Virus record (IMG/VR): IMGVR_UViG_3300027365_000001
Span: 1 to 60,134 of that record
Length of the DNA stretch: 60,134 bases
Strand: one strand, 5' to 3'
From: a virus
The notes under the pieces were generated by a model. That model worked only from the letters and a program-made list of their open reading frames with translations, was not told the DNA's origin and did no database searches. Made by a program: the position numbers and the translations under genes. This document shows, piece by piece, positions 13,390 to 44,479 of this stretch (its first letter is position 1; every line of letters begins with the position of its first letter).

Positions 13390-13490
13390 ATATGGAGACG
13401 CACGCGAAAAAGGTATTGCGAATAACGAACCTCGGTGCCAATATCAGCACCATGCAGCACGGTGCTGCACAACAGCGAACGAGGCATCAC

Positions 13491-23634: not shown

Positions 23635-24008
23635 TTCTTCTCTCCTGGGTTGGTGGTGGCCGCTTTCCATGCCGCGGCCAGTCGGCTCAGCACGCCGTCC
23701 TGAATGGAGCGCAAGGCTTCGGCGCCGGCGTGGCCGGTGATGGCGATGCAGACGGCGGTGGTCAGCGGCTGGAAGTTCGCCATTTCGCACAGCCAGAAGG
23801 TCAGCACCCCGACGAAGGTCGAGGTCACGAGCCCGGTAACCAGCGTCAGGATAGCCTGTCGCGCCGTCTCTTTGCTGTCGCGCATCGAGTTGAGGAACCG
23901 GACCAGGCCGCCCCAGCCAGAAACGACGCATACCCACATGTAGGTCAGCCAGTTGTAGGTGTCGGGCGACTTCGCCACTTCGGCGGCCTGCCTCAATTCC
24001 TCGTTCAT
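23631..24008 (-). CDS. holin (three predicted TM segments)
   Basis: ATG 24008 after GGGGAG. TM-like stretches are WLTYMWVCVVSGWGGLV, ILTLVTGLVTSTFVGVLTFWL and TTAVCIAITGHAGA. ATGA-coupled to the endolysin. Confidence 0.75.
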   Translation of the reverse strand: MNEELRQAAEVAKSPDTYNWLTYMWVCVVSGWGGLVRFLNSMRDSKETARQAILTLVTGLVTSTFVGVLTFWLCEMANFQPLTTAVCIAITGHAGAEALRSIQDGVLSRLAAAWKAATTNPGEKK

Positions 24009-24032
24009 CCATGCTCCCCGGCGGATTAATTC

Positions 24033-24068
24033 GGTCTGATGATAGTCGTCATGGTCCGATTTCGGAAC
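24033..24068 (-). promoter_or_regulatory. candidate promoter for the lysis cassette (member of the TATCAT/GATAAT-C[AG]GACC motif family)
   Basis: The minus strand reads CTATCATCAGACC (24045->24033), about 25 nt upstream of the holin ATG. The -35 (TTCCGA) is weak. A second GGTCCGAT core lies at 24053-24060. Confidence 0.35.
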
Positions 24069-24375
24069 CAAAAACCGCCACGCGGCACTTGCGAATGCCA
24101 TCGCGGCGCCACCATGCCGCGAGGCGGTCGCCATGGCGGAAGAGGAAGAGGTGCAACGGCTCTGGAATATCCAGGAAGCCGTGCGCCAGATGGAGCAGAG
24201 GAAGCGGTCGGCGAAGGGCTGATTCGCTGCCGACCTACAGCGTCGTGAGGCCCAGGCAGGGAGCCGCCCCCATTTCCTGGACCGCTCCTAACCAGATAAC
24301 AGCCCGCCAGCGTCGGAGCGGCATCATAACTTGCGGCAGTGCTATCCTACCCGAAACCAGCGCCAGGAGGCGACC

Positions 24376-24603
24376 ATGCTTGAAGACTTCGCCGCTCTCG
24401 GCATTCTGATCACCATCATCGGGTTCTTCGCCTACACGCAGGCGCCGGCACACTGGCAGACGCCGCTCGGCTTCGGCCTGATCGTGTTCGGCTGGGTGCC
24501 GGCAGGGCTGATCATCCTAACCCTGCTCAAGCACCCCGCTATCATGCTCCCTGCCCTGTTCATCCTCGGCATTCTGGTCAGTCAGCGGCGGCGCGCTTCC
24601 TGA
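24376..24603 (+). CDS. small integral membrane protein (75 aa), a lone plus-strand gene between two minus-strand late units
   Basis: AGGAGG-N5-ATG at 24376. Translation MLEDFAALGILITIIGFFAYTQAPAHWQTPLGFGLIVFGWVPAGLIILTLLKHPAIMLPALFILGILV. High GC3. Its last 26 nt overlap the 3' end of the giant gene. Confidence 0.65.
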   Translation: MLEDFAALGILITIIGFFAYTQAPAHWQTPLGFGLIVFGWVPAGLIILTLLKHPAIMLPALFILGILVSQRRRAS

Positions 24604-27600
24604 TCTTCTCCTGCTCGAGATCCTTGCCGACCTGCTCCGTGATCAGGTTGCGCAGCGAGCGCAGCCGATCGAGCTCCAGGCGCTTCGCCTCCCCACTCAT
24701 TTCCTTGTCGAGCTGAATGCGCTTCATGTCGGCGTTGATCTTCGCCAGGTCGCGGCGCACGGCATTGAGCGCCTTGCGCATGCCGAGCTCGCCGGCCTTC
24801 TCTTCAGCCAGCGCCGCGGCGCGCTTCTCGTCGCCGTACTTCTCCAGGTGCATCAGGTCGGCATAGGCGCGATCGGCCTTCTTCAGCGCCTCGTAGAAGT
24901 CGGTCCCGTAACGGGTGTAGGTCGGCTCCTGCGTCAGGTCGCGGTAGAAGCGCTTGATCGGCTGGTACTCGTGCCAGCGCCGGGCCGGCAGTTCCTCTCC
25001 CATCGCGCGGCGCCATAGGGTGTCGGCCGTCGCCACGGCAGTGGCACCTACCGAGCCGGTATAGCCCCTGATCAGGTGGTCGATCTGCACCGGCGACAGC
25101 GCAAGATCCTGGCCGCCGACGGCGCCGGCTGCAGCCTCCATGCCACGGCTCGCCGCATCTGCCAGACGCGACGTGTCCGGCCGGCTGCGCAGGCTCGGGC
25201 TCAGGCGCTCCATGGACTGGTCCTCGATCGGGCGGCCGGTGAACGAGTCCTTGTTCTTCCAGAACACCTCGACCGCCGGCTTCACGAGCTGCGGCGTCGG
25301 GTCGAAGGCGAAGGTATCGGTCAGCATGTGGCCGAGGCGCTGGGCGAACTTCTCGCCACCGACAGCAGGGTCGGCGAATTGCTCGGCCAGGCGCTCGCCC
25401 ATGGTCGCGATGGCGCCCACCTCGAACGGCTTCGGAATGAAGAACATTTCGTCGCCGATGCGGATGATCCAGTAGGTGTCGCGCTGCCAGTCCTCGAGCT
25501 TGCGATATTCGTCGTCGTCGTAGTTGTTGAGGAACAGGAGCGTGCTCGCCAGCGTCAGCGCACCGGTGACCGCCATGAATCGCGCGAAGGCCTGCCGGTC
25601 TGCCTTGGTGCCCTTGCCCATTGCGACCTTGGAGCCAGGCTTGAAGCCAGCCCGGTACAGCTTGTCGAGGCCCTGGATGCGCGCATTCAGGAACGGCACC
25701 AGATCGATCAGGATGCGAATGGCGATAGCGTCACCATGGGCCGAGAAGTCCATCAGGTCGCGCGCCTCGAAGGCAGCTTTCAGCTTGCCCTTCTCCAGGT
25801 TGCGTTCCCAGATACCGGCGCGGTTGATGTTCTCGGCGAAGTCCGTGACCGCGTGATACTTGCGCCAGGCGGTCAGCAGCGCGCCAGGGATCAGCTTCGG
25901 ATCGCGCAGCACCTTGGCCTTGCGCATGGAGACGGTCAGGCTCGCCTTGATCTCGTCGGCGTTCTGGCCATAGACGTGACCGAAGGAGAAGGCCCCGCCG
26001 CTCGCCATCATGCGCGCTCGGTTGTGGTCGTTCCAGTAGGTCAGCGCACCCTTGAACGCGGTCTTGAACGGCACGGCGCTGGTCGGCGAAGTCGCCATTG
26101 CAGAGAGCGTATCGCGCAGACCGTTCGCCACGACAAACTGCGGCGTAATGGTGGTCATGTTGGTGAAGAAGCGCTTGAAGGCGCGGCCAACCTTCATCAC
26201 CGGCGTATTCAGGCCGGCGCTCGATAGGGCGGAAACCGCCTTGAAGGTCAGCGGGTCGCTCACGTCGTACCACTGCTTCTCGCCATCAATCATGACGTAG
26301 GTGCTGGCCTTCTTGTCGCGCTTCGCTTCGGTGGTCTGCTCGGCAATGCCCAGCGCCTCGGCGTTCGCCATGGCCTGCGCCGCGGCCTGATTCTTGAGGC
26401 TCGCCTGAATCAGGTGGTGGAAGTTGAGCAGCGTGTTGTCGAGCAGGTCGTTCAGGTGCTGCTTGCCGCCCTTCAGCTTCTTGTAGGCCTGCTGCCGGGA
26501 CAGGCCGGAGCCGGCGCGCGGGCCGCCGATCGAGTCCTCGTCGATCACGCGGTAGAACGGAACGTAGAACTCTTCGGACCACAGCTCGCGCTGCGAGCGC
26601 TGCAGGTCGTCGAGCTCCTGCGTGATCGCGTCAAGGCGGTCCTGCGGCGTGTTGAGCATGTCGATCTTCATCGACTGCACAGCACCATTCAGCCAGTCGA
26701 GCAGGGCATCGTTCGCCATGTCCACCTTCTGCTGCGCGGTGTTCAGCATGTCCGGCGTGCGCGCGGCGTCGAGCGCGTTCTTGGCCTCGGTCAGCTGCTT
26801 GATGATCGCGGCCGGTGCCTCGTATTTGCGCGCGATGACCAGGCCGGCGTCTGGCTTGCTCATGGCCGGCTTGAGAAGCCCAGCCTGCTCGGCGATGCCC
26901 AGCACGTCGTCGCGGTGCTGCTGCAGCTCCTTCCAGGCCTTCGCGTAGAGGATGCTGCGGCTCTTGCCGTTCTCGAGCTTGCCGCCGGACAGCTTCATGC
27001 CGGCTTGGATCTCGGAGTGACTGAAGAGGTTTTCGCGGCCTTGCTTGAACAGCTTGTTGGCGCGGTTCGCCGCGATCCACCCCATGAAACGGTCGATCTC
27101 CGCCGGAGACCCAAGACTGCGCAGCGTTGCGGCGAGGCCTTGGGTTCCTTCGCGCACGTCGATGACCTTTTCCTTCGGATCGAGGTAGATCCTGCCGGCA
27201 TCCATCATGGCGGAGACGGCACCGCCTGCGGCATGGCTCATGCGCGCCAGCACCCACGAGCTCGAGGCGATCGAGCCTTCCAGCGTATCGGCACCCAGCA
27301 GCGCCTGGTCGTTGCGCAGTAGCGCGGCGTAGCGGTCGACGCCAGCTTGGCGGATGCGCAGGCCAAGGTTATCGGTCAGCTGGTCGAAGCGATCGCGCAG
27401 GCGCTGCGGCAGACTGGTCGGCCCGATCTTGTCGAGGAAGTCCTTCTGCGACTGGTTCAGGTCGTTGAAGGCCTCGGACGGTCGGACGCTGTAGCGGATG
27501 TCGGCATTCTCTGGGTCGAAGGTGCCGACGTTGCCGATGGCAGACTTGATCTGCTCGGGGCGGAAGGCGACGTACTGAATCGGCCCGCTACCATCCGCCC

Positions 27601-30600
27601 AGCCCTTCAGGATCACGCCGTCGTGTCCGTCAAACTGAGCGGACTTGATCATTTCCTCGATCTCGAATGCCGCCACAAGCCCGGCATTGGCACCGCCCAC
27701 GTCGATGACAGCCGGATTCTGCAGCGATAGATAAACCGGCATGACATTGGCTCCCTCGGAGCCAGCAATGAACCCCTCTTCGTCTCTGAACTCTCGCCCA
27801 GCACTCTCCGCATATCGATCGGCATACTCGGTCAGCGGCGTGAAATAGAAGCCCGGCAGCTCAATATGCTTCGCTCTTACCTTCTTGGAGAACTCGCTGA
27901 AGTCGCTGGCCGTCCCGTGATAAACCACCAGTGGCTTGCCGTTCTCGTCGACGACTTTGCTCGATCCAAACCAGCGCTTGAAGGCCGGCGTCTCGGTAAT
28001 GCGCGTCGTGCTGAACCGCTCAGCAATCGGCCCGAACAGCTCGCCGCGACGATGCAGGGCGATGGTGATCAGCGCATCCTTCGCCAGGGCGCGCAGCTGC
28101 GCCGGCGTCACCTGGCCGATTTGGCGGCCGTAGCGGCTGAACATCCAGGCCTTGATAGCGCCGACCAGATCGTCGACCCACTTGCGGAAGGAAGACGGCA
28201 TGCTCTCGTATTCCTCGATGGCGTAGGCGCCGAACTCTTCCACCTCCATGCGGCGCGTGACGGCGCCTTGGGCCTTGGCATCGGCCACGCGGGCGCGGGC
28301 CAGGTCGAAGATTTCCCGAGCCTTGCCGCTCGACCGCTCGGCCTGGCGGTAGAGGCTGCCAAGGCGCCCCTGCAGATCCGCCCAGCGCTTGGAGCCGACC
28401 AGGCTCTCGACGACGGAGTGGAACATTTCGTGGAGAAGAACCGCGTTCGCGTTCTGCTGGGTCAGGTTGCTGGCGACCAGGTGAACCTTGCCGCCTGGCT
28501 CGGTCACCGCCTGAACGCCACGCTTCCCGCGCCCCATGTCCTTCGGCAGGGTGCTGCTGTTCGAGTGGATGACGATCAGGCCCTTCTCGACCATCTTGTC
28601 GACGATGACGCCGAACGGCCCGCGCGTGATGGCGGCGCGAACCTGGTTGACACTCAGCGGCGCCTCGCCGTCCTGGACGGAGTAGCGGATGTCGCCGCGC
28701 TGTTCGTGCAGCTTGTTCGCTGCCTCGCGCACCGCCTTCAGACGATCGCCTTCGTACTCGACGATCTCGATGCCGTTCTTCTTGAGGATGGCCCGCGCCT
28801 CGGCCGGCAGATTCTTCGGCACCACGGCGCCGGCGAACTCGTTCAGGCTCACGGCGCGCTGCGGCTTGGCCTCGAAATACGGAACCGGCGCATTCAGCAG
28901 AGCCTCGGCGGCCAGCATAGCCAGCCCGATCGGATCGCGTGGAGCATGGTCTGCTGCCTTGGCCAGCTCTTCCTGCAGAGCATCCTGGTTCTGCTTCAGC
29001 CGGCGCTCGACCTCGGGAATGCGCGAGTCGCCCGGCTCCAGCTTCTGAAGTCGGCCTGCCCACTTCTGAATCTCAGCCTCGATCGACTGGATCAGTGACT
29101 TGTCCACGGTGGCGGCGCCGCCCGCTGCAGCCTTCATGGCGGCCACGTCGAACTTCTCGGACTTCAGCGCAGCTTCCATCGCCGCGCGGTCGCGCTTCTT
29201 TTTCGTGCTGAACTTGGCGATTGCGCGCATCGAGGCATCCAGCGCCTCGAACGTGTCTGGTCGCCCGTCCCAAGTGGTGTGCTGGGTGAACTTAATCGCC
29301 GCGTCACGGTACTGGTCGAGCAGCTTTTCAGTGACCTTCTTGGCCTCTTCGTATTGCTGCGGATCGACGATGCTTTCCGCTGCAGCCTTGCGCATCTGCT
29401 CAACATCGGAGAACTCAATGGACGATGCAGCGCGAGCATTGCCGGCGCCGAAGGCCATCGTTTTCTCCTGGCCGCGCACAGGGCCGCGCGTCATCACGTC
29501 AACGATGTTGTCGAGCGTGTACGGTACTTTCTTGCGGCCTACGGTCAGCAACGGCTCCCCCATGACCGGGAGTATCTTGCCTTCGACCCATTGCTTGAAC
29601 TCAAGCTCCAGGTTGTTCTCTTCAAGCAGGCGACTGACCTGGGTGCGAGTTTCCCATGGGTCAACATCAGGGCCGCGCTTGGCTTTCTGCAGATCGCCCT
29701 TGAGCGTGAAGGCAGCCCATCCTGGCCGACCCATCAGGCGCTCTTTCACCTTTCCAGCCAGCGCAGGTCGCTTGGCGTACTTCTTGTCGATAGCTTCATC
29801 CAGTAGGCGCTCTACCTCGGCAACCTCTGGCGCTTCGTTCTGATCAAGCTCGGCGTAGCGATTGGCCTTATTGATCAGTTCCTCCATTCCAAGGATATCC
29901 GCCGGCGTGAAAGGAGAATCCAGGGTGGTATCGCGCATGGCAGGCTTCACGTCATGCCCTTTCTCGCGAAGGAACATGGCCATAGCTGCCGGGCTGCTCA
30001 TCCAGTCATCAATGGCGCGCGATCCATCGCCACGATTAACCATCGCATCGAACGAATCCATCACGCGGCGATCGTCGAACTCTTCAGAAATCGGCTTCAG
30101 CGGCTTGAGGATGGCATCTGCGTCCTTAATCTTGGCCTTGCGGAACTCTGGCTTAGGGAAGCGCACGGTGTAGGCGTCAGCGCTGAACACCGGCTCCTGC
30201 CGCGGATCGCCAAGATCCTTGGTGCCGATCAGGGTGATCTCGCCAAACCCGTCGACGCCGCCGGCTTCGGTGGTCACAACGCCAATGGACGGGACAGCGA
30301 TGCCGCCAATCTTGTCGGCGAAGGCTAGGTTCTCGGCGGACAGGTTGTGGATGGCGATCAGGTTGCGGTCGGCTTCAGCCGCTACACTGTAGCGCGGCCC
30401 CTGGTCGAGGTGCTTGGCGCGGATGAACCAGCCGGTTTCGCCGGCGGCGTTCTTCTTGCGGAAGGTGTAAGGGTCGATCTCCTTCGCAGCGTCCTGCGTT
30501 AGGTCGGTGCGGATGATGCCGCGCAGAACCTTACCCTTGGCAGTGGTGTGCTCGATGATCTCCTGCTTGGGCTCCGGCGTGCTGGTCGGCTGGCGATCCG

Positions 30601-33600
30601 GCAGGCTCAGGCTCTCGAGGCGATCGAAGAGCTCGTTGACGCTCTCGGCATTCGACAGGTCGATGTTGCGCTGCAGGATGCCCTCGGCATCGGCTGCATT
30701 GGCGTGCTTCTCGAGCACCAGCACCTGAGTGTTCACCGCGGTGCCGGCGCGCTCGAAGGTAACCGCCGGCATGGCGATCTTCGCCACGGTGTAGAGATCG
30801 GCCGCCTCTTCGCTCTCGAGGAAGGCATCGAGGCGCTTGTCGGCCAGGCCGCCGCGCGGGATCAGCGCCACGATCCGGCCGCCGTCGCGCAGGTGCTTCG
30901 CGGCCTTCGCCAGGTGCTCGGTAGATGTCTTGCCGCCGCTGCCATAGGGCGGGTTCATCACGATGGCGTCGAACTTGTTGTTGATGTGCAGCTGCTCGAA
31001 GCGATCGTTGACGATCCGGGCATTGCCGTTCGCCAGCGCCGCACGCTGCGACAGCTCGTAGCTCGGCTCCACCATCGTCACGTCGGACTGCTCGGGGAAG
31101 AACCGGGCGATGGCGCCATGGCCGGCGGACGGCTCCAGGGCCTTGTCGTTCGGCTGGATGTTCGCCCACTCCACCATCTTGAAGCCGACCGGCTCCGGTG
31201 TGGCGAAGTAGTCCTGCCCCTCGCGCTGGTCGCGGCGCTTGCTGTTCTTCTGCTGCGCCCAATAGAACGTCTTGGCGCGATCGAACGGGCTCGTCGTGAA
31301 GGCGGCCGACAGCTTGCGGTCGTAGTCCTTGCCGCCCTTGCCGTCCTCGGCGCTGGCAGGGAAGGCGTCGGCGTTCTGGTAGGCGTCGATGAAGGCTTCC
31401 TTCAGGCCGCGAGCCTCTTCGCCAAGCGCCAGGTTCTCGGCCGTCGATGCACGCTCGGCGATCTTCGATGCGAAGGCTGCCGCCTCCCATGCGGTGCCGG
31501 TGGTCAGATACCGGAAGATGGCATCGGAGGCCTGGCCGGTGCGGTAGATCCGGCCCTCGATCTGGGTCGCGGCAACCGGCTTGACCGGCATGCCAAGGTT
31601 GATCTCGACGCGCTGGTGCTTGCCGGTGGTGTCGTGCAGGCTCACGCCCTCGCGCCCGGCATCCGACTGCACCACGATCAGATTGCGACCGGAATCGTCG
31701 TCGTTGAACAGGTCGGCATTCGCCCGGCGCTGGCCCTTCGACACGGTACCGTTGAAGAACAGCGCGTCGGGGAAGGCCTCGCCAAGCGTCTCGATCGGCG
31801 AGAACAGGCCGGAGAAGTCCAGCTTGAACATGGGCTTGCCCAGCACGGAACGGGCAAGGCTCTTCACGTCAGGATCTGCAATCTCCCGAATGGCGTCCTG
31901 GAACGGGTTGAAGCCGCCGCCCTTGTTGAAGTCATGGAAGACCACGATCTTGCGGCCGAGCGCCAGGTGCTCACGGATGATCGGCACGGCGGCGCGGGCC
32001 TTCATGGACTCCAGCAGGTACATGCGGCGCTGGTAGTCGAACTGCTTGCTGACCGCCTCGTAGACTTCGCGGTAGCGGCCTTCCTCGGCCTCGCGCAGAT
32101 ACTTCAGGCCCTCGTCGATCTTGGTGCCAACGGCATCGTCGACCAGCACAAACTTGCGGTCATAGTCGTGCGCCACCTCGAGGCGGCGGCCGGACAGCGC
32201 ACCGGTGCTCTTCAGCCACTGGTTGAACTGCTGCTCCATCAGCTGCGAGTTCACGCCAGACTCCGGCGCCGTCAGCTTGTTGTAGCGCATCCGGTAGCCG
32301 AAGTGCTGCATCAGGAAGCGGTCGCGCGGACTGCCGGAGTTGTAGCCGCCGACGTTGCCTTGCGACTTCAGCAGGTCGGCCGGCTCGACGTAGTGGAACA
32401 GGTAACCCTCGGCATAGTCGACGTTTTTCGCGTAGGCGAACGGGGTCGCCGACAGCATAACCGTCTTCGGCAGGCTCTCCTGCTTTGCCCAGCGCTGGTT
32501 CCACTTCTCGCGGGCCGGCTGCTCGATGGCGTTCCACTTCTCGCGGGCCTTGGCTTCGGCGGCCTCGAGGGCGATGTAGCGCTCCATCGGCACGTCTGGG
32601 TTGCCGTTTGCATCGGCGCGGTCCTGCATAGCCGCCGAGAAGGCCTGCCACTCCTTTGCGTGACGCTGGCGCACCCAGCGGTAGAAGCCGGCATGGTGGC
32701 CTGTCAGGGCGCGCAGCTGCTCGAGCGCCGCGGTCTTGTCGCCGCCCTCGTTGCTCGACAGGTAGTGCGACTCGTCGGCGATCACCAGATCCCAATCGCG
32801 CTGCGCCAGGCTCTCGTTCTGGCCGAAGTTCGCATAGGTGGTGACGATCGGGCCGGTCTTGCCGTTGTCGTTGGTGTCGGCCAGCTGCTTGAGCTCGACG
32901 CCCAGCATGCGGGCGAACTTCACCCAATCCGAGGCGATCTTGTCGCTCGGCACGACGATGACGATGTTGTCCTTGCCGTCATTGATGAAGCGCTTGGCAA
33001 CGCCAAGGCCGGTCGCGGTTTTGCCGGTGCCGGTGCCGTTGGTGTAGAGGATGCCGTTGTGCCCGGCCAGGCGCTGCTCGGCCTTGAGCACGTCGTCGCG
33101 CTGCTCGGGCAGCAGCAGGGGAAGGGCGGCGTCGATGCTGGCCTTGTCGCCCCACTTGGTCGGGGCGTTCTGCGCCTTTCGCTGAGCCGCTAGACGTTGA
33201 TCGAGGTCGCCGGCTCCAGGCGCTTGAGCATCGTCAGCAACAGCTTCTTCTCGCTCCTGCTCAACGATCTGTCCTTGGATGCTATCGCCACCGCTTCCGG
33301 TGCGTTCAGGATCTCCGGCAGTGCTGCTCTCAGGCTGGAATTGCCCGTCTGCTCGATATGCTGGCTGATCGCCTCGTTCTCGGCCAGCAGTGGCGCCATC
33401 GCCTGGTAGGCGTTGATCACGCTGTCCGGCACCTTGTTCGCCGTCAGCGCCTCGGCCTGCCTGCCCAGCTCCTTCAGCATCTTGTCCTGCGGCATCGCCA
33501 TCAGCTGCCTGAACGACGGGTTGCGCAGCTCCTGCGTCCGGGCGATCTCGTTCCACACGCTCGCGGGAACCTGGTGCATTCAGGCCTCCTTGCGCAGGCG

Positions 33601-36600
33601 CTTGGCCCGCCGCTTCAGGCTGTGGTCCTTGTCCGTTTCCGCCAGGTGCTCCAGCGTTCTCGCCATCAGTTCGCGGGCTTGCGAAGATGTCTTGTTGCTG
33701 GCCGGCTTGCTGCTCTTGCCGTTGGAGTCGGTCATTGGTGCCTCTCAGGATCTCGGCGCCGGTGACTTCCGGCTCGCCAAACATATTGGTTCCAGGCTGG
33801 GACAGCTGGGCCTGCTCAGTATAGTACCGCAGCGCATCGGCAACCTTATCCCGGCCGCGGGCGCGCGTGAAGCTCTCGCCGCGGTAGAAGATGCTCATGA
33901 ATCCCAAGGTCACCGGGTCGAGTTCGCCGGAGAAGAAGTCATTCTGGCGCACAAGCTCCAGGATGGGGCGGCCTTCGGCGCGGGCCCGGCGGATCAGGTT
34001 CACGGCCTCGAGCAGGTTCGGAGTCGTGTCGACGCTCTCCGAGATCACACCCTCGCGTGCATCCTCACGCATCTTCGCCCAGCTGCCGGCCACGTCGAGC
34101 AGAGCGCCGCCGATGGCCTTGATGTCGGTGTCTGCGCTCTCGAAGAGATCGGTGATCAGCGTCTCGTCGCCGTAGGCGCTGCCAAGCAAGGCGGCCTCGA
34201 TGCGGCGCCGGCCGTCCTGGGACAGCATGCCGTCACCATCCAGGATGCGGCCACGGTCTGCCTTGGCGGCCACGTCGCCCACGAAGGCGCGCACGAAGTC
34301 GCGGTTCGCTGCGGCCTGCAGGTCGCCGCCACGATACAGGTGCAGGATCGGGCCCATCTTGCGGGCATCGGACAGGGCGCGCTCGGTCGAGCTCAGTTCC
34401 AGGGTGGTGCGGTCGTTCGCTTCCGTGGTGTAGGCGATCCGCTCTTCCATGGACATGGGCGTGACGCGCTCGCGCACCAGCACCGGCGCCTTCATGCCGG
34501 CCACGTCGTAGCCCTGGCTTGCCAGCCATTCGCGGTAGCGGTCGGCCATGCCGCGGGCATAGGCCTGGCGGATGGCAAGCGTCCGGCCGTTGCCGCTCTC
34601 GACAACGTTGTCGGGGGAAACGATCGGGGCGCCGTCTGTCGCGCTGGCGCTCTCGCCCAAGAGGCGCGGGTTCAGCTTGCTGGCGATGTCGTTGATCTGG
34701 TCGAGCGAGGCGGAGCGGGAGCGGTCGCGCGGCTGCAGCTCCTTCGGGTAGTCCGGGTTGATGGCGCCGGTGGCATCATTCGACGTGACCAGTTCGTCGG
34801 CCTCGATGACCTTGTGCTTTACCTCGAACTCGCGGCCTGCCGGGGTCGATACGGTTTCGCGCTTGGCGGCCGGTGCCGCCGGTGCGGTGTCGCCGGCGTC
34901 GAGCTGGCGCAGGGCGGCGCGAACCTCGTCCGGGCCGTCCATGCCTTCGATCGACAGGCCGGAATCCTCGATCATGTCGCGGGCGCCGTTATACCAGCTG
35001 CGTAGGTAGGGCCTGACCTTCTCGAGCGGCATGTCCAGGTCCGCCGCCATGGTGCGCGCGAACTCGGCGAAGCGGCGCACGCCGGCCTCGATGTGGAAGA
35101 CGGCGAGCTCGGTGCCCATCGCCAGGATCTCGGGATCGATGCCGCTGTTCAGCTGCGAGCCGTTCAGCTTCGCCTTCAGCTTGGCGCGTAGCTCCGCGGC
35201 GCGGTCGGCGGTCACCAGCTTGTTGCTGGCGCCGTACTCGGCAGGCTTGGTGACGGCCTGCTCGGCTGCTGGCTTCTGCTCGGCTGCCGGTTGGCGCATG
35301 ACGCTCGGGTCGATCACGGTGGCGGTGATGCCGTCTCCCACCTTCTTGGTAGTGACTGGCTTGGCTGCCTTGCGCAGCGCAATAGCCCCGGGCTCGCCAC
35401 GCTCTGCAGCTCCTTTAATTCCGTCGAAACTGAATGGCTGGCCAACAAGCTGCTCTACAACATCAGCCGGGATCTCGTGCTTCTCAGCAAGGCCAGCAAT
35501 TTCGGCGTCGGTCAGGCGACGATTATTTGCAATGGCATGTTCGGCAATGTCGGCAGCGAGCGGAGCCATAGAGCGTCCGGAATATGTACCGGAGAACTCG
35601 CGCGCAATGGAGCGAACACGGTCGGCATAGGCATCAGCGGTTTCAACTATAGGCTGACGCTTGGAGCCAGCAGTGATGCCGTCTCCTACCTTCTTGGTGG
35701 TGACGGGCTTATTGTCGCTCTCTGCAGGCCTCTCTGCGCTCTCTGCTTCATCACGCACCAGCGGCTTCAAGGTCGATCGTATGACTGGCGGCTGTTCGCC
35801 AAACAGGTATTCCTCTGCGCTGTCCTTGTCGGCTTGGCTTGGTCTGCCTAGGTTCGCCTCGAACTGGCGAGCATTGAACTCGTCGCCACGCGCGCGCGCT
35901 TCGTCAATGGCGTTCTGCATCAGCCACTGGTCCACGCGCTTGATCGTGTTAACAGCCTTGCGATTGCCATCCACGTCGATTTTCGGGAACGGCGTTGTCT
36001 GCCGGCCGCTGGATGTCGTCACCACCTCACCAGCGGCCAGCATCCCACCAACTTCTCCGCGGCGCGGTGCCGGCTGGGCTTGATCGCCAGCGGCAGCCAT
36101 GCGCCGGTTGAAGGTGGACATATCCATCTTCTCGGTGCGGGTGCCCATCTTCACCTTGACGAAGCCGTCGCCAACGTCGGTGATGGTGCCCTGCTGGCGG
36201 CCCTTGCCGAGCACGACGGCCTGGCCGACCTGCGGAGCGGATGCAGGCTGCCCAGCTGTCAAGGATTCCTTGACGGTTGCCTCGTCGCCGGCCTTGATCT
36301 TCTGATTCAGCTCGCCGAGGTGCTGCTGGATCGGCACAGCCTCGTATTTCTCGGTATTCAGCGCATCGACCTTCTTCTTGTCGAAGGTCTCCATGATGAC
36401 TTCGCCGGTTTCCTTGTTTCGGATCACCCAGCTCGCCGGCTCGCCCTGCAGGCTATTGGTCGGCTCGACCTTCGGCCGCTCGACGATCTCCTTGGCCGCG
36501 CTCACCGGCTCTTCCTGCTTCGGCCTGGTCAGAGCGTTGATGGCCTGCTCGATAGCCTTGCGGCGTTTGGTCAGGCGAGCGTGCTCGTTGCGAACCTCGC

Positions 36601-39028
36601 GCGGGCTTTCCTTGGTGATCTCAAGCTCTTTCGCCTGCTTGGCCACCGCCTTCAATTCGCCGCGCAGTTCAGCCTCGCTCATCTGGTCAAGGCCTTTCTC
36701 GGCCTCTGCTTGGATGCGCTCGCTCAGCAGGGGCGTGCGCTGGGAGGAAGGCTGCTCAGTGGTCAACTGCGGGTTTACAACTGGCGCAGTGTCGGCCGCG
36801 CCCTGCTCAGGCATGGCAGGCTGCTCGACGGCTGCCGGCTCTTCGATCGCCGACGCTTCCTCGATGGCCTCCGGCTCCGGTTGCGCGGCGGTCTGGCTGC
36901 GCACGATGTCGACGCCATCCTCGTGCGTGAAGTCGTAGGTGTTTCCATCCTCGGCGGTGACGCGCGCCGTCCAGCGGCCGTTGCCCTGGTCGACGTAGCT
37001 CTCCAGCGTACCCGCGACCTCTCCATCCGGAGCCACGACAGTGACCGGCTCGCCGGACTGCTGGATCACGCGCTCGGCCGCACGCGACAGCGGGCCCTTC
37101 GGCGGCTGCGGAGCGGCTTGCTGCGCTGCTGGCGCGGCGTTGTCGTTGACCGCTGCCGGTGGCACCTGCTGCGGCGCTTCGGATGCTGGCGTGGCCGGCG
37201 CAGCGCTCTGCGGAGTGGTGTCGGATTGGGTCGGGCCGGGCGTAGCGGTCGGATCGGCGACCTCGCCAAGGGTCGGTTCGACACGCTCCTGCGGCTGCTC
37301 GGTTTCGGTGCGCTGGTAGGCTGCACCACCCATGGCGCCGCCCATCACGCCACCGACAGCCAGACCGCCAAGGCCTTCGTTCACGACGCCTTCGCCGATC
37401 TTGCGGTTCGGGTCTGCCTTGCTGACGGCATAGTTCTCGGCCGCCTTCTGGGCCATCGACTGCGGCAGTTCCTCGAAGATGCCTTCGGCCACCGCGCCCT
37501 TGGCGACACGGCCGGCGAGGTTCGCCGATACGCGCCCGGTGATCAGGTTCGCCAGCGCCCGGTCACCCAGACCGCCGAACAGGCCGGTGGCGGTGCCGGC
37601 GATCAGGAAGCCCTGCGTGGCCGCATCCTCGGCGAGCTGCGCCCGGGCAGCCTCGAGGCTCATGCCTTCCGACATCAGCGACTGGATGGCCTCGGATTTC
37701 ACAAGGTCTTCCGGCTTGAGCTTCATGATCTCGTCGCGCACCTGGCGCGCGGTGCCGGCGCCGCCCATCAGGCCCTCGGTCACGCCGCCGGCGATGGTGG
37801 CGGTGCGTGCCGCGGCTGTTGCGGCGGCAGCCTGCGATCCACCCTTGGCGATGGCGCGCAAATAGGAAGCCTTGGCGAGGCGCCCGGCTGCCCCCATGGT
37901 CAGCACCGTTTCCGGCAGGGACTGGATGATGCCGCCGGCATAGGCGCGCGGATCGCTCCAGGCCGGGCCGAAGGTGCCCTTCTCGGAATCCCACCAGGCT
38001 TTGTTGAGCGCCTGCGATTGCTCGGGCGTCAGATCCTTGCGGGAGGCCTCGATGCTTTCGCGCAGCAGGGTTTCGGAGTCCTTGCCCTGCAGCCAGCGGT
38101 CGGCGGCATCGCCGGCCCGCACAATGCTTTCGCCCACCACCGGAATGCGGCTGACGAGCTCGCGCAGGTTCTGCGCTGCGCTGGTTGTGCCCATCCACAG
38201 GAGGTTGCCGGCATCGCTCAGCATGCCGCCATCGTCTGGCGTTTCCTGCGCCTGAGTCTGCACAGCCGGCGTCTGGGCTGCCGGTGCGGATTGCGGCGTG
38301 GTTGCGGCGACAGCCTTCGCGGCCTCGACCGGATCGGCGCCGGTCTTGATCATTTCCTGCTGCACGTCAGGGCGCAGCGGAGAAGGCGGCTCCTGGCCGG
38401 GCATCACGACCTTGTAGCGGCCCGGCTCCTTGGCATCGAGCTCGGCCTGGATGGCGGACAGGTCGAACTCTTCGGCCTCTTCGGCGGAAGCCTGGGCGTT
38501 CTGCATGAAGCCCTGGCCGATCTTGCCGGCCTTGCCCATCACGTCCTGCACATACTGGCGGGTCTTCGGGCCCCACTGCCTGCGATCGTCGCCGCCGTGG
38601 TGCGCCATGATGGCTTCTTCGAGGGTGTAGCCCTTGTCCAGGCGCTCGCGCAGCTGCTTGGCCGCGGCATGGATCGACTGCTTGGCGTCGAACGGATTGA
38701 TGCCGAGGCTGCTCGCGGTGCTGTCAAGGTACTGCATCAGGCCCTTGGCGCGGCCCCATTTCGTGCGCGCACCGACCGCGCTCGGATTGTAGCTCGATTC
38801 CTGCTGGCCAAGCGCGGCGAGCACGTTCAGCGGAACGCCATACTCGGCGCTAGCCTCTTCGAAGATCGGCTGGAAGTTCTGCGGCGGCATCAGGCCGCTG
38901 GTGCGCATGGATTGCGCGGCGCTGCGCGGTTCGGATCGCTCCGGGAGCTCAATCTTGGGCAGTTCGTAGCTCTTGGACTCTTCGATCAGCTTGTCGATGG
39001 GGGACTGGAGGAAGCGGTTTTCAGCCAC
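24578..39028 (-). CDS. giant polyvalent virion protein (4,816 aa): lytic transglycosylase + ParB-like + SF2 helicase + N6-adenine methyltransferase + HExxH metallopeptidase + ADP-ribosyltransferase-like + C-terminal ejection/membrane region
   Basis: GTG start at 39028 after GAGGG. SLT motif GQQESSYNP...GLMQ (~38500-38870). ParB-like KELQPRDRSR...ESGNGRTLAI (~34350-34820). Helicase motifs GTGTGKT (~33030), DESH (~32775) and QIEGRIYRTGQ (~31540). MTase motifs EPSAGHGAI (~31110) and MNPPYG (~30950). HEMFH at ~28430. FKRWFGSSKVVDENGKPLVVYHGT (~27930-27990) resembles ART-PolyVal. TM-like segment FMAVTGALTLASTLLFL near the C-terminus. Confidence 0.9.
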   Translation of the reverse strand: MAENRFLQSPIDKLIEESKSYELPKIELPERSEPRSAAQSMRTSGLMPPQNFQPIFEEASAEYGVPLNVLAALGQQESSYNPSAVGARTKWGRAKGLMQYLDSTASSLGINPFDAKQSIHAAAKQLRERLDKGYTLEEAIMAHHGGDDRRQWGPKTRQYVQDVMGKAGKIGQGFMQNAQASAEEAEEFDLSAIQAELDAKEPGRYKVVMPGQEPPSPLRPDVQQEMIKTGADPVEAAKAVAATTPQSAPAAQTPAVQTQAQETPDDGGMLSDAGNLLWMGTTSAAQNLRELVSRIPVVGESIVRAGDAADRWLQGKDSETLLRESIEASRKDLTPEQSQALNKAWWDSEKGTFGPAWSDPRAYAGGIIQSLPETVLTMGAAGRLAKASYLRAIAKGGSQAAAATAAARTATIAGGVTEGLMGGAGTARQVRDEIMKLKPEDLVKSEAIQSLMSEGMSLEAARAQLAEDAATQGFLIAGTATGLFGGLGDRALANLITGRVSANLAGRVAKGAVAEGIFEELPQSMAQKAAENYAVSKADPNRKIGEGVVNEGLGGLAVGGVMGGAMGGAAYQRTETEQPQERVEPTLGEVADPTATPGPTQSDTTPQSAAPATPASEAPQQVPPAAVNDNAAPAAQQAAPQPPKGPLSRAAERVIQQSGEPVTVVAPDGEVAGTLESYVDQGNGRWTARVTAEDGNTYDFTHEDGVDIVRSQTAAQPEPEAIEEASAIEEPAAVEQPAMPEQGAADTAPVVNPQLTTEQPSSQRTPLLSERIQAEAEKGLDQMSEAELRGELKAVAKQAKELEITKESPREVRNEHARLTKRRKAIEQAINALTRPKQEEPVSAAKEIVERPKVEPTNSLQGEPASWVIRNKETGEVIMETFDKKKVDALNTEKYEAVPIQQHLGELNQKIKAGDEATVKESLTAGQPASAPQVGQAVVLGKGRQQGTITDVGDGFVKVKMGTRTEKMDMSTFNRRMAAAGDQAQPAPRRGEVGGMLAAGEVVTTSSGRQTTPFPKIDVDGNRKAVNTIKRVDQWLMQNAIDEARARGDEFNARQFEANLGRPSQADKDSAEEYLFGEQPPVIRSTLKPLVRDEAESAERPAESDNKPVTTKKVGDGITAGSKRQPIVETADAYADRVRSIAREFSGTYSGRSMAPLAADIAEHAIANNRRLTDAEIAGLAEKHEIPADVVEQLVGQPFSFDGIKGAAERGEPGAIALRKAAKPVTTKKVGDGITATVIDPSVMRQPAAEQKPAAEQAVTKPAEYGASNKLVTADRAAELRAKLKAKLNGSQLNSGIDPEILAMGTELAVFHIEAGVRRFAEFARTMAADLDMPLEKVRPYLRSWYNGARDMIEDSGLSIEGMDGPDEVRAALRQLDAGDTAPAAPAAKRETVSTPAGREFEVKHKVIEADELVTSNDATGAINPDYPKELQPRDRSRSASLDQINDIASKLNPRLLGESASATDGAPIVSPDNVVESGNGRTLAIRQAYARGMADRYREWLASQGYDVAGMKAPVLVRERVTPMSMEERIAYTTEANDRTTLELSSTERALSDARKMGPILHLYRGGDLQAAANRDFVRAFVGDVAAKADRGRILDGDGMLSQDGRRRIEAALLGSAYGDETLITDLFESADTDIKAIGGALLDVAGSWAKMREDAREGVISESVDTTPNLLEAVNLIRRARAEGRPILELVRQNDFFSGELDPVTLGFMSIFYRGESFTRARGRDKVADALRYYTEQAQLSQPGTNMFGEPEVTGAEILRGTNDRLQRQEQQAGQQQDIFASPRTDGENAGAPGGNGQGPQPEAAGQAPAQGGLNAPGSRERVERDRPDAGAAQPVVQAADGDAAGQDAEGAGQAGRGADGEQGAGQRDQRLPGDGATAGRERGDQPAYRADGQFQPESSTAGDPERTGSGGDSIQGQIVEQEREEAVADDAQAPGAGDLDQRLAAQRKAQNAPTKWGDKASIDAALPLLLPEQRDDVLKAEQRLAGHNGILYTNGTGTGKTATGLGVAKRFINDGKDNIVIVVPSDKIASDWVKFARMLGVELKQLADTNDNGKTGPIVTTYANFGQNESLAQRDWDLVIADESHYLSSNEGGDKTAALEQLRALTGHHAGFYRWVRQRHAKEWQAFSAAMQDRADANGNPDVPMERYIALEAAEAKAREKWNAIEQPAREKWNQRWAKQESLPKTVMLSATPFAYAKNVDYAEGYLFHYVEPADLLKSQGNVGGYNSGSPRDRFLMQHFGYRMRYNKLTAPESGVNSQLMEQQFNQWLKSTGALSGRRLEVAHDYDRKFVLVDDAVGTKIDEGLKYLREAEEGRYREVYEAVSKQFDYQRRMYLLESMKARAAVPIIREHLALGRKIVVFHDFNKGGGFNPFQDAIREIADPDVKSLARSVLGKPMFKLDFSGLFSPIETLGEAFPDALFFNGTVSKGQRRANADLFNDDDSGRNLIVVQSDAGREGVSLHDTTGKHQRVEINLGMPVKPVAATQIEGRIYRTGQASDAIFRYLTTGTAWEAAAFASKIAERASTAENLALGEEARGLKEAFIDAYQNADAFPASAEDGKGGKDYDRKLSAAFTTSPFDRAKTFYWAQQKNSKRRDQREGQDYFATPEPVGFKMVEWANIQPNDKALEPSAGHGAIARFFPEQSDVTMVEPSYELSQRAALANGNARIVNDRFEQLHINNKFDAIVMNPPYGSGGKTSTEHLAKAAKHLRDGGRIVALIPRGGLADKRLDAFLESEEAADLYTVAKIAMPAVTFERAGTAVNTQVLVLEKHANAADAEGILQRNIDLSNAESVNELFDRLESLSLPDRQPTSTPEPKQEIIEHTTAKGKVLRGIIRTDLTQDAAKEIDPYTFRKKNAAGETGWFIRAKHLDQGPRYSVAAEADRNLIAIHNLSAENLAFADKIGGIAVPSIGVVTTEAGGVDGFGEITLIGTKDLGDPRQEPVFSADAYTVRFPKPEFRKAKIKDADAILKPLKPISEEFDDRRVMDSFDAMVNRGDGSRAIDDWMSSPAAMAMFLREKGHDVKPAMRDTTLDSPFTPADILGMEELINKANRYAELDQNEAPEVAEVERLLDEAIDKKYAKRPALAGKVKERLMGRPGWAAFTLKGDLQKAKRGPDVDPWETRTQVSRLLEENNLELEFKQWVEGKILPVMGEPLLTVGRKKVPYTLDNIVDVMTRGPVRGQEKTMAFGAGNARAASSIEFSDVEQMRKAAAESIVDPQQYEEAKKVTEKLLDQYRDAAIKFTQHTTWDGRPDTFEALDASMRAIAKFSTKKKRDRAAMEAALKSEKFDVAAMKAAAGGAATVDKSLIQSIEAEIQKWAGRLQKLEPGDSRIPEVERRLKQNQDALQEELAKAADHAPRDPIGLAMLAAEALLNAPVPYFEAKPQRAVSLNEFAGAVVPKNLPAEARAILKKNGIEIVEYEGDRLKAVREAANKLHEQRGDIRYSVQDGEAPLSVNQVRAAITRGPFGVIVDKMVEKGLIVIHSNSSTLPKDMGRGKRGVQAVTEPGGKVHLVASNLTQQNANAVLLHEMFHSVVESLVGSKRWADLQGRLGSLYRQAERSSGKAREIFDLARARVADAKAQGAVTRRMEVEEFGAYAIEEYESMPSSFRKWVDDLVGAIKAWMFSRYGRQIGQVTPAQLRALAKDALITIALHRRGELFGPIAERFSTTRITETPAFKRWFGSSKVVDENGKPLVVYHGTASDFSEFSKKVRAKHIELPGFYFTPLTEYADRYAESAGREFRDEEGFIAGSEGANVMPVYLSLQNPAVIDVGGANAGLVAAFEIEEMIKSAQFDGHDGVILKGWADGSGPIQYVAFRPEQIKSAIGNVGTFDPENADIRYSVRPSEAFNDLNQSQKDFLDKIGPTSLPQRLRDRFDQLTDNLGLRIRQAGVDRYAALLRNDQALLGADTLEGSIASSSWVLARMSHAAGGAVSAMMDAGRIYLDPKEKVIDVREGTQGLAATLRSLGSPAEIDRFMGWIAANRANKLFKQGRENLFSHSEIQAGMKLSGGKLENGKSRSILYAKAWKELQQHRDDVLGIAEQAGLLKPAMSKPDAGLVIARKYEAPAAIIKQLTEAKNALDAARTPDMLNTAQQKVDMANDALLDWLNGAVQSMKIDMLNTPQDRLDAITQELDDLQRSQRELWSEEFYVPFYRVIDEDSIGGPRAGSGLSRQQAYKKLKGGKQHLNDLLDNTLLNFHHLIQASLKNQAAAQAMANAEALGIAEQTTEAKRDKKASTYVMIDGEKQWYDVSDPLTFKAVSALSSAGLNTPVMKVGRAFKRFFTNMTTITPQFVVANGLRDTLSAMATSPTSAVPFKTAFKGALTYWNDHNRARMMASGGAFSFGHVYGQNADEIKASLTVSMRKAKVLRDPKLIPGALLTAWRKYHAVTDFAENINRAGIWERNLEKGKLKAAFEARDLMDFSAHGDAIAIRILIDLVPFLNARIQGLDKLYRAGFKPGSKVAMGKGTKADRQAFARFMAVTGALTLASTLLFLNNYDDDEYRKLEDWQRDTYWIIRIGDEMFFIPKPFEVGAIATMGERLAEQFADPAVGGEKFAQRLGHMLTDTFAFDPTPQLVKPAVEVFWKNKDSFTGRPIEDQSMERLSPSLRSRPDTSRLADAASRGMEAAAGAVGGQDLALSPVQIDHLIRGYTGSVGATAVATADTLWRRAMGEELPARRWHEYQPIKRFYRDLTQEPTYTRYGTDFYEALKKADRAYADLMHLEKYGDEKRAAALAEEKAGELGMRKALNAVRRDLAKINADMKRIQLDKEMSGEAKRLELDRLRSLRNLITEQVGKDLEQEKIRKRAAAD
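33190..33579 (-). CDS. embedded ORF-b (129 aa) in an alternative frame of the giant gene; unknown function
   Basis: AAGGAGG-N5-ATG at 33579. By hand count about 117 of 129 codons end in G/C, against roughly 40% for the giant frame over the same bases. The sequence looks helical and non-repetitive: MHQVPASVWNEIARTQELRNPSFRQLMAMPQDKMLKELGRQAEAL... Confidence 0.6.
   Translation of the reverse strand: MHQVPASVWNEIARTQELRNPSFRQLMAMPQDKMLKELGRQAEALTANKVPDSVINAYQAMAPLLAENEAISQHIEQTGNSSLRAALPEILNAPEAVAIASKDRSLSRSEKKLLLTMLKRLEPATSINV
33580..33735 (-). CDS. embedded ORF-a (51 aa, basic) in the same alternative frame, immediately upstream of ORF-b
   Basis: GAGAGG-N5-ATG at 33735, with an in-frame TGA four codons upstream (33745-33747). 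The stop TGA at 33580-33582 abuts the ORF-b ATG. Translation MTDSNGKSSKPASNKTSSQARELMARTLEHLAETDKDHSLKRRAKRLRKEA. Confidence 0.45.
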   Translation of the reverse strand: MTDSNGKSSKPASNKTSSQARELMARTLEHLAETDKDHSLKRRAKRLRKEA

Positions 39029-44439: not shown

Positions 44440-44479
44440 GGTGAGCCTCCTGCATGGCATTGTAGGGCGCGAAGGCCTG

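Follow-up and report, generated by a model that had tools for sequence, protein, structure and literature searches.

Giant proteins annotated as 'DarB-like' are a described hallmark of Bcep22-like phages and of many Ralstonia phages. One of them, gp69 of phage JC1, comprises 4,515 amino acids (aa) and takes up 22% of its genome; in CsCl-purified virions it gave the second-highest mass-spectrometry score and 51 unique peptides, and the JC1 paper cites virion mass spectrometry of Bcep22 as well. A 3,764-aa protein of phage Parlo was reported earlier as a presumed DarB homologue. The 2,811-aa gp47 of phi24B, which contains an LPD38 domain, is abundant in virions, is invisible in cryo-electron microscopy and has been proposed to be an ejection protein (2026 preprint). 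In phage P1, DdrB is a head-packaged component of the Dar system and is listed as helping the addition of DarB to the capsid. The broader class of polyvalent proteins was defined by Iyer et al. 2017 (PMC5512222), who name the ART-PolyVal, ddrB-ParB, PBECR and LPD38 domains and propose that HExxH peptidases process such proteins. The subject here is a giant open reading frame (ORF), and a smaller ORF embedded within it, in IMG/VR virus record IMGVR_UViG_3300027365_000001. The window, meaning the whole stretch of DNA analyzed, is positions 1 to 60,134 of that record.

It is quite probable that the giant ORF encodes a polyvalent protein that serves as an internal virion (ejection) protein of a Bcep22/GP4/Parlo-like podophage, with a conserved chassis and exchangeable effectors, and that is made late, packaged, and expelled with the DNA. 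The predicted effectors are a DdrB-like ParB module, a Strawberry-notch (Sno)-like translocase-methyltransferase, a PBECR5 ribonuclease (RNase)-like domain and an ADP-ribosyltransferase (ART) of the H-Y-D type. Polyvalent proteins combine at least two disparate activities in one polypeptide encoded among late or virion genes. In the window, SLT, ParB, superfamily 2 (SF2) helicase, methyltransferase, PBECR5, ART and LPD38 domains occur together in one polypeptide, whose gene lies among the late virion genes. The chassis is homologous, by BLASTP against four phages, to that of the Bcep22/Parlo-like giants, and it occupies the syntenic position.

It is also likely that the linker preceding the helicase is dual-coding, and that a gene with its own Shine-Dalgarno (SD) sequence and ATG is translated there in the +1 frame. 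This gene would always be found directly upstream of a Sno-like helicase-methyltransferase and would encode a small, mostly acidic partner or regulator. As part of the same reading, R[YF]S motifs at module borders might be cleavage or recombination joints of a self-processing, cargo-swapping polyprotein. If true, the embedded gene would be a more valuable result than the giant protein itself.

The giant ORF has 4,816 codons, begins with GTG and contains no internal stop according to the ORF list and its translation. At 14,451 of 60,134 nucleotides it occupies 24.0% of the window, as a preliminary description of this DNA had stated. The sequence GAGGG lies a few bases 5' of the GTG. Relatives of the protein align with its N-terminus from residue 1, and because the N-terminus is conserved from that residue, the start is judged to be right. 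Pfam was run at its curated gathering cut-offs on the whole protein and on ten overlapping tiles. Scores were 51-54 bits for SLT (cut-off 21.3), 122-125 bits for ddrB-ParB (PF18763, aa 1397-1521; cut-off 27.6), 85 bits for PBECR5 (PF18814, aa 2881-3084; cut-off 25) and 82-87 bits for ART-PolyVal (PF18760, Tox-ART-HYD2 clade, aa 3694-3837; cut-off 31.2). Also above their cut-offs were ResIII/DEAD (aa 1982-2135, 39 bits), an MTS/Eco57I-type methyltransferase (aa 2634-2728, 26-29 bits) and LPD38 (aa 4505-4689, 147 bits). Helicase_C_4, the C-terminus of Strawberry-notch homologues, matches aa 2446-2539 with 33.8 bits as a tile and 30.4 bits in the full protein (cut-off 30.5). The same match is found in phages Parlo, ZX1 and Skulduggery and in two metagenomic relatives labelled P0278 and P0258.

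These profiles bear out the lytic transglycosylase, ParB/Srx-like domain, SF2 helicase, N6-adenine methyltransferase and ADP-ribosyltransferase that the preliminary description had read by eye; PBECR5 it had overlooked. Each motif it quoted was found where it had placed it, an agreement far beyond chance. The motifs begin at aa 76 (QESSYNP, ~38803), 1430 (ELQPRDRSR, ~34741), 1998 (GTGTGKT, 33037), 2085 (DESH, 32776), 2489 (QIEGRIYRTGQ, 31564), 2632 (EPSAGHG), 2692 (NPPYG), 3533 (HEMFH, 28432) and 3701 (VVYHGT). The transglycosylase retains the ES motif with its catalytic Glu, and helicase motifs I, II, III and VI are all recognizable. The motif set of the methyltransferase is the pattern given for EcoKI/TaqI-like adenine methylases in Iyer et al. 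2017 (PMC5512222). Two further active sites were compared with configurations given in that same paper. In PBECR5, H2894 and S2913 are conserved in five aligned homologues, which agrees with the pairing of His and Ser/Thr in PBECR domains and suggests a catalytic role for both. In an alignment of the ART domain with 118 homologues, H3704 is present in 99% and D3803 in 100% of the 119 sequences, and an aromatic residue occupies position 3728 (Y in the giant protein; in the set as a whole, F 53 and Y 47). As placed by alignment, these residues fit the H-Y-D site (strands 1, 2 and 5) of the ART-PolyVal clade.

A comparison with four deposited giants and with 61 proteins of at least 3,000 aa from a representative-protein search divides the protein into a chassis and cargo. 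The chassis consists of the SLT domain and the Gly-rich region that follows it, the module at aa 1226-1392, the HExxH domain and the C-terminal region, and the effector modules are the cargo. The Gly/Ala-rich segment is common to Bcep22 gp75, Parlo and ZX1. It had been described as Gly-rich and hydrophobic; its composition agrees (G 15%, A 18% over aa 401-600), but its Kyte-Doolittle values stay below 1.3, so it is no classical transmembrane (TM) segment. The segment matches PHROG families named endolysin and virion RNA polymerase in their N-terminal part only. An N4-like virion RNA polymerase was considered and rejected, because only aa 352-857 match the N-terminal part of phrog_2206 and no polymerase family was found by Pfam in the whole protein or its tiles.

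In these alignments, the methyltransferase and the HExxH domain flank what behaves as a swappable cargo slot. Nothing fills it in Parlo, Skulduggery, P0278 and P0369; its occupant is an ART in P0258 and P0292, a GNAT in ZX1 and PBECR5 in the window. The 570-aa PBECR5 unit is shared with gp32 of Cobetia phage Carin1 (39% identity) and with P0259. The GC content at third codon positions (GC3) is 0.86-0.91 in the chassis and helicase-methyltransferase parts of the gene, 0.76 in the PBECR5 insert (28694-30493), 0.74 in the ART domain (27494-27958) and 0.74 over aa 601-1225 (35354-37228). The lower values are compatible with more recent acquisition of these three parts.

The C-terminal module (aa 4130-4816) is the predicted delivery or incorporation end of the chassis. 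It has more than 240 homologues among proteins of up to 1,200 aa, many with ART-PolyVal directly before it, and dozens of its residues are invariant; the matches listed by the three protein homologue searches were all of about 1,200 aa or less. An AlphaFold 2 (AF2) model of the LPD38 module is confident, with a predicted local distance difference test score (pLDDT) of 80 and a pTM of 0.73. Neither Foldseek nor profile search found a relative of the module in the PDB. In BFVD, the module does match the C-terminal parts of many large phage proteins, with TM-scores as high as 0.86, and these proteins bear other cargo, including RelA/SpoT domains, lysozyme-like domains and methylases. A scan of genome contigs turned up nothing beyond C-terminal modules of 49-62% identity, in Halomonadaceae prophages and in one metagenome-assembled genome of Porticoccaceae. 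The TM-like segment previously noted in this region corresponds to a single near-TM window (aa 4482-4500, Kyte-Doolittle 1.58), which lies within a long, confident helix of the AF2 model.

Because T7 gp16, a known trans-envelope conduit protein, also begins with an SLT domain, the giant protein might instead be chiefly a structural ejection (ejectosome) protein that forms such a conduit, with enzymatic modules that are minor or decayed passengers. Its C-terminal LPD38 is shared with phi24B gp47, a proposed conduit-forming ejection protein; the gene directly follows those for internal virion proteins; and the chassis is conserved and the cargo variable. However, catalytic motifs are intact in every enzymatic module, and the helicase-methyltransferase block remains 60-72% identical across distant phages, which argues that its activities are selected. 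A mainly structural role is thus a possible but rather doubtful account, and one largely compatible with the polyvalent reading rather than opposed to it.

The gene order supports a late, virion-associated role. PHROG matches on the minus strand run from terminase (56705-58282), portal (53483-55744) and major head protein (50749-51846) through several virion structural proteins to tail fibre (45774-46871), internal virion protein (42691-44460) and two further virion structural proteins (40735-42192 and 39105-40349). The giant ORF follows, and then holin and endolysin (about 23173-24134). The placement after internal virion protein genes, from which co-injection with the DNA had been suggested, is therefore accurate, and the same synteny, with the giant gene last and lysis next, is seen in Bcep22, Parlo, ZX1 and Skulduggery. 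Structural genes are ~75% identical at the DNA level to those of Ralstonia GP4-like phages, Burkholderia Bcep22-like phages and Pseudomonas phage Itty13; no close overall relative was found among deposited phage genomes. A nearly identical phage is represented in IMG/VR by a 40.8-kb contig (L018, IMGVR_UViG_3300029199_000009), which is 98.4% identical over 8.4 kb (window 29193-37579). Packaging of the giant protein is plausible by analogy, because JC1 gp69 and the LPD38-bearing giant protein of phi24B have been detected in virions.

Several points weigh against the polyvalent reading. The virion proteins Bcep22 gp75 and JC1 gp69 share only parts of the chassis with the giant protein, so packaging is argued from homology and synteny. 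In the accessible literature, anti-restriction activity is reported for none of these giant podophage proteins, and the same is true of their other activities and targets. The anti-restriction label comes from P1 DarB, which the giant protein resembles in its methyltransferase only. The peptidase assignment lacks profile or fold support, processing of the giant protein is hypothetical, and the embedded ORF has no family match and a translation predicted from its sequence.

Similarity to P1 DarB had been noted previously in the pairing of a methyltransferase with a helicase. Relatives of the giant protein are annotated as 'DarB-like antirestriction', the protein matches phrog_10089, and a methyltransferase paired with an SF2 ATPase is a DarB hallmark. 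Perhaps, then, it is a true orthologue of DarB that serves mainly, in the DarB manner, to protect injected DNA in cis from type I restriction, with its other modules accessory. The methyltransferase (aa 2608-2775) does align with DarB aa 91-275 (25% identity, E 2e-6), but nothing else does significantly, since the helicase lobes give E 0.08-1.6. In addition, the helicase has a probable Strawberry-notch-type C-terminus and precedes the methyltransferase here, which is the opposite of the DarB-type order; the usual dyad is LPD36-methyltransferase-helicase in Iyer et al. 2017 (PMC5512222), and Pfam found no LPD36 in the whole protein or its tiles. A real DarB-type dyad is exhibited by Bcep22 gp75, which is collinear with DarB in three segments (E 8e-20, 1e-18 and 5e-16, within a range of 1e-20 to 5e-16) and has a methyltransferase followed by an SNF2 domain in Pfam. 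Strict DarB orthology was therefore rejected, and a DarB-type main function is unlikely.

Because Bcep22 gp75 is collinear with DarB and the giant protein matches it only via the methyltransferase, two distinct helicase-methyltransferase cassettes appear to share the 'DarB-like' label, which matters whenever anti-restriction function is inferred from the name. The Sno-like type is found in this window, Parlo, ZX1, Skulduggery, Ruegeria phage 45A6 and two Vibrio phages. A clearer link to the Dar system lies elsewhere in the protein, where aa 1393-1795 align with P1 DdrB aa 32-453 (33% identity, E 1e-52), so that the ParB/Srx-like domain is specifically DdrB-like over 400 aa. No similarity to DarA, DdrA or Ulx was found in the giant protein.

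Spurious long ORFs are common in high-GC genomes, and many lie on the opposite strand in the ORF list of this window. Such a chance frame, or a fusion of genes by sequencing errors, is nevertheless refuted as the origin of the giant ORF, and we regard an annotation or assembly artefact as vanishingly improbable. In-frame homology covers the full length of the ORF. Single ORFs of equal length occur in at least ten independently sequenced phages and on many metagenomic contigs, low-GC ones included, and loci in IMG/VR agree. Moreover, GC3 in the giant frame is 0.74-0.91 everywhere outside the embedded ORF. Within aa 601-1225, no alternative frame is open across a second low-GC3 patch (aa ~1105-1225), so this patch is simply lower-GC sequence.

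The HEMFH segment had been called a zincin-like peptidase, a claim that stands in part. The ~240-aa domain around it is common to Bcep22 gp75 (48% identity), Parlo, ZX1 and Skulduggery, which also carry the form HE[AMLV][FV]H. Across 11 sequences, H3533 and E3534 are invariant and H3537, E3597 and E3598 (in EEFGAYA) are at least 90% conserved. An HExxH with a Glu ~60 residues downstream resembles the gluzincin pattern, and the AF2 model (pLDDT 74) shows three short strands, the HExxH helix and further helices. However, Pfam is silent on this domain in the protein, its tiles and eight homologues, the sole exception being a match of one homologue to DUF6782 (E 0.043), and sequence and profile searches of the PDB gave no match. 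Foldseek of the model against the PDB reached E 0.38 at best, and hhalign against the HExxH region (MPTase) of P1 DdrB aligned 22 columns with a probability of 4.7%. The domain is thus a conserved candidate metallopeptidase rather than a demonstrated zincin. The homologue search with this domain alone gave 8 matches. A representative-protein search with its alignment was dominated by ART columns, and its 18,999 matches are not a count of HExxH domains.

The tripeptide R[YF]S occurs four times in the giant protein, at aa 2879, 3448, 3671 and 3845 (about 30392, 28685, 28016 and 27494), and every copy is at a module border. PRYSV precedes the PBECR5 insert, DIRYSV separates the insert from the HExxH domain, ERFST follows the HExxH domain, and a second DIRYSV follows the ART domain. 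Chance estimates by the same computation on twelve relatives are 0.7-1.5 per protein. Among relatives, the ART is nearly always succeeded by DIR[YF]S, and the form found ahead of the HExxH domain is [PAV]R[YF]S. The motifs could be processing or cleavage sites, recombination joints, or simply domain-terminal strands.

Over aa ~1780-1945 of the giant protein, GC content at codon positions 1/2/3 is 0.88/0.59/0.45, as opposed to about 0.65/0.45/0.88 elsewhere in the gene. Because this pattern is offset from the rest, the coding signal in the linker is shifted by one base, to the +1 frame. The ORF that occupies this frame begins with an ATG directly after a +1-frame stop, and aa 1817-1946 of the giant protein are dual-coding. 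Its product matches no main-frame protein. By tblastn, it is conserved in Parlo (68%, E 9e-55), Skulduggery (60%), ZX1 (57%), two Halomonadaceae prophages (45%), Ruegeria 45A6 (E 1e-9) and Vibrio phages 1.232.O (E 2e-12) and D274 (E 2e-11). All of these matches are in the +1 frame of the annotated giant coding sequence or of its helicase match. The same kind of search shows no such ORF in Bcep22, whose cassette is of the DarB type.

A scan of IMG/VR added 54 loci. A frame that is open throughout encloses the ORF in 53 of these, and the exception is cut by a contig end; in 50 loci, some of them with only 38-46% GC, the host frame runs for at least 1,500 codons without a stop, and the third frame is never open across the embedded ORF. 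The start codon is ATG in 52 of the 54, purine-rich SD-like motifs lie upstream in the loci inspected, and complete copies have 120-143 codons. Walker A and DExH motifs come next in the giant frame in nearly all loci. In two (L045 and L047), the small ORF is embedded even though the large ORF begins just 182-229 codons upstream. In all, an ORF of the 129-codon type is embedded in this way in more than 60 phage loci.

Selection acts on this ORF. In 45 close pairs, nucleotide differences number 522, 409 and 1055 at its codon positions 1, 2 and 3, so the third positions of the +1 frame vary most. The same nucleotides give amino-acid identities of 0.88, 0.60 and 0.37 in the +1 frame versus 0.75, 0.42 and 0.23 in the giant frame. 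In 41 high-GC loci, codon-position GC is 0.64/0.43/0.83 for the embedded ORF and 0.63/0.42/0.83 for the downstream helicase in its own frame. Across the overlap, the sequence read in the giant frame is low-complexity and polar in all loci examined, those of low GC included. The embedded ORF is under purifying selection, and very probably it is a real overlapping gene, with predicted translation, that travels with the Sno-like helicase-methyltransferase cassette.

The ORF might nevertheless be untranslated, with its conservation imposed by the giant frame or by nucleic-acid constraints. It has no family match, it is annotated in none of the five GenBank feature tables inspected, and chance-open alternative frames are frequent in high-GC genes. 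Against this stand the nearly constant ATG, the SD-like motifs (here AAGGAGG), the narrow range of lengths and the persistence of the arrangement in loci of 38-46% GC. The higher identity in the +1 frame, the excess of third-position differences, and a codon-position GC equal to that of the helicase where the giant frame is low-complexity also count against it. Lack of translation is accordingly improbable. No conserved homologue was found for a 54-codon +1 ORF that lies immediately 5' of the embedded gene.

Because the embedded ORF always travels with the helicase-methyltransferase cassette, its product probably partners or regulates that cassette. The product has no Cys and no TM segment, and is acidic in 6 of 8 homologues. 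It matched nothing in Pfam, PHROGs or the PDB, and hhalign showed no resemblance to P1 Ulx, DdrA or DarA. In a collection of 15 billion proteins, the exact sequence was found only on short Logan contigs, and the ORF has one match among plasmids, a 57.7-kb Comamonas record in which it lies under an LPD38 protein. A limited literature search found no description of the ORF, and no mention of an overlapping gene turned up in term searches of Iyer et al. 2017 (PMC5512222), none of which was aimed at one. If translated, it is a conserved overlapping gene, absent from the five GenBank tables, in more than 60 phage genomes and metagenomic loci whose hosts are as distant as Ruegeria, Vibrio, Serratia and (probably) Pseudomonas. 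Its product would then be a candidate for a part still missing from the injected helicase-methyltransferase machinery.

These observations are suggestive of a sequence of events. The giant protein would be made late, packaged in the head and ejected into the host with the DNA, with the chassis mediating both packaging and ejection and the SLT domain opening the peptidoglycan. The translocase-methyltransferase, perhaps with the ParB module, would act on the incoming DNA to blunt restriction, and the PBECR5 RNase-like and ART modules would alter RNA and proteins of the host. By cutting at the R[YF]S junctions, the HExxH domain may release modules from the polyprotein, and the embedded small protein may assist or regulate the helicase-methyltransferase cassette.

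Table 1. Positions of the giant ORF, its modules and the embedded ORF in the window
Feature	Window positions (residues)	Strand	Basis or remark
Giant ORF	24578..39028	-	Final gene of the late virion operon; lysis cassette next
SLT lytic transglycosylase	38570..38863 (aa 56-153)	-	PF01464; ES motif E77-S78 in QESSYNP
Gly/Ala-rich, hydrophobic-like segment	37289..37951 (aa ~360-580)	-	Composition, PHROG, relatives
~170-aa module, function unknown	34853..35353 (aa 1226-1392)	-	In all giant relatives compared, 37-75% identity
P1 DdrB-like module	33644..34852 (aa 1393-1795)	-	ddrB-ParB at aa 1397-1521; DdrB alignment
Low-complexity G/A/Q/D-rich linker	33149..33643 (aa 1796-1960)	-	Codon-position GC (values in text)
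Embedded ORF	33190..33579	-	+1 frame; 129 codons + TAG; ATG at 33579, AAGGAGG, 5-nt spacer
SF2 helicase/translocase (predicted)	31229..33148 (aa 1961-2600)	-	Pfam; motifs I GTGTGKT, II DESH, III SATP, VI QIEGRIYRTGQ
Adenine-N6-type methyltransferase (predicted)	30494..31228 (aa 2601-2845)	-	TP FATPEP, I EPSAGHG, IV NPPYG; MTS profile
Cargo insert, 570 aa	28679..30394 (aa 2879-3450)	-	PBECR5 at aa 2881-3084; edges PRYSV and DIRYSV
HExxH domain	27959..28678 (aa 3451-3690)	-	HExxH...EExxAY conservation; candidate gluzincin-like peptidase
ART-PolyVal ADP-ribosyltransferase-like domain	27494..27958 (aa 3691-3845)	-	Pfam; H3704, Y3728, D3803
C-terminal chassis	24581..27493 (aa 3846-4816)	-	~970 aa; LPD38; aa 4130-4816 conserved, mostly helical; AF2

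Two local features of the giant gene were also observed. A 41-nt direct repeat (35322-35362 and 35670-35710, 90% identical, 348 nt apart), each copy of which encodes KPVTTKKVGDGITA, flanks a stretch of lower GC3 (about 0.5). The alignment with a 97% identical IMG/VR relative (L022) has a gap of ~376 nt between window positions 35248 and 35718, which suggests a repeat-associated indel. In addition, the 46 residues at aa 865-910 (36299-36436), ASWVIRNKETGEVIMETFDKKKVDALNTEKYEAVPIQQHL, match the entire 48-residue profile of phrog_25603, a family whose function is unknown (E 1e-20), and this suggests a captured small gene.

Within the lysis cassette (23173-24134, minus strand), the holin match covers residues 56-152 of ORF 23631-24134 and the endolysin match residues 123-278 of ORF 23173-24012, so both genes probably start inside these maximal ORFs. 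A 90-codon ORF on the plus strand (24331-24603) converges on the 3' end of the giant gene with a 26-nt overlap. Its hydrophobic product looks by eye like a multi-pass membrane protein, and the ORF is reminiscent of the pair of small genes on the reverse strand found after the giant gene in Bcep22-like phages. A RecE/RecB-like exonuclease gene (13485-14325) is 72-76% identical to those of Bcep22-like phages. Because a DNA-cytosine methyltransferase-like gene with 81% DNA identity to Pseudomonas phage TC7 is found at 6851-7517, the phage has a separate, non-packaged methyltransferase besides that of the giant protein.

The nearest relatives of the giant protein are metagenomic giants on phage-sized contigs: P0278 (4,196 aa, 62.4-kb contig), P0258 (4,299 aa), P0269 and P0285. 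They are 65-72% identical to the giant protein over aa ~1250-2885 and about 70% identical to it over aa 4129-4814. The specific combination of modules had been singled out as worth dissecting, but it is not unique, as P0278 and P0258 have the same Pfam architecture (SLT, ddrB-ParB, ResIII/Helicase_C_4, MTS, ART, LPD38) and the HExxH domain, minus PBECR5. All four relatives lack the 570-aa insert (aa 2887-3440 are uncovered), and P0258 has a second ART in its place.

Bcep22 gp75 (4,602 aa) and JC1 gp69 come from the same type of genome and are likewise encoded by the last late gene before lysis. Bcep22-like giants share the N-terminal SLT and Gly-rich region (37% identity over aa 1-558), the ~170-aa module, the HExxH domain and the LPD38 C-terminus. 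In contrast, gp75 has its own LPD3 domain in addition to the DarB-type dyad, and it lacks ddrB-ParB, PBECR5, ART and the embedded ORF. Parlo gp081 (Serratia), the ZX1 'PLxRFG protein' (3,867 aa; Klebsiella) and Skulduggery gp28 (3,695 aa; Pseudomonas) have an N-terminus 38-39% identical to that of the giant protein, and they share the HExxH domain, the embedded ORF, and the helicase-then-methyltransferase block with 60-62% identity over about 1,000 aa (75.6% at the DNA level for Parlo). They differ in having a C-terminal LPD39 instead of LPD38, and they lack ddrB-ParB, PBECR5 and ART.

As described by Iyer et al. 2017 (PMC5512222), the polyvalent class shares with the giant protein the union of many disparate enzymatic domains in one late-gene polypeptide, and the same named domains: ART (H-Y-D), ddrB-ParB, PBECR, methyltransferase-helicase, LPD38, lysozyme-like and HExxH. 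The reversed order of the dyad and the probable Sno type of the helicase are differences. In the P1 Dar system, homologues of the methyltransferase and of aa 1393-1795 belong to DarB and DdrB, both head-packaged but separate proteins of a myovirus, unlike the single giant here. The helicase of DarB is not detectably related to that of the giant protein, and the HExxH region of DdrB shows only a 22-column local resemblance.

The gp47 protein of the Escherichia coli Stx phage phi24B (LPD5, LPD1, LPD38 and MuF-C metallopeptidase) is, by its description, a similarly large LPD38 protein, detected in the virion by proteomics. Its cargo domains differ, and the tail and portal of phi24B resemble those of Ralstonia phage GP4, a relative of the structural genes in the window. 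The giant protein is thus a further architecture in a class known computationally since 2017 and from virions of JC1 and phi24B, and it illustrates what may be a conserved delivery chassis with hot-swappable effectors, one slot of which holds PBECR5, ART, GNAT or nothing. For the embedded ORF, the comparison is with Rz and Rz1 of phage lambda, in which one gene lies wholly in the +1 frame of another. There a complete gene with its own start occupies the +1 frame of a larger phage gene, as the embedded ORF appears to do. The sequences and functions are unrelated, and the host gene here is a 14.5-kb gene for a predicted virion protein, with a disordered linker at the overlap.

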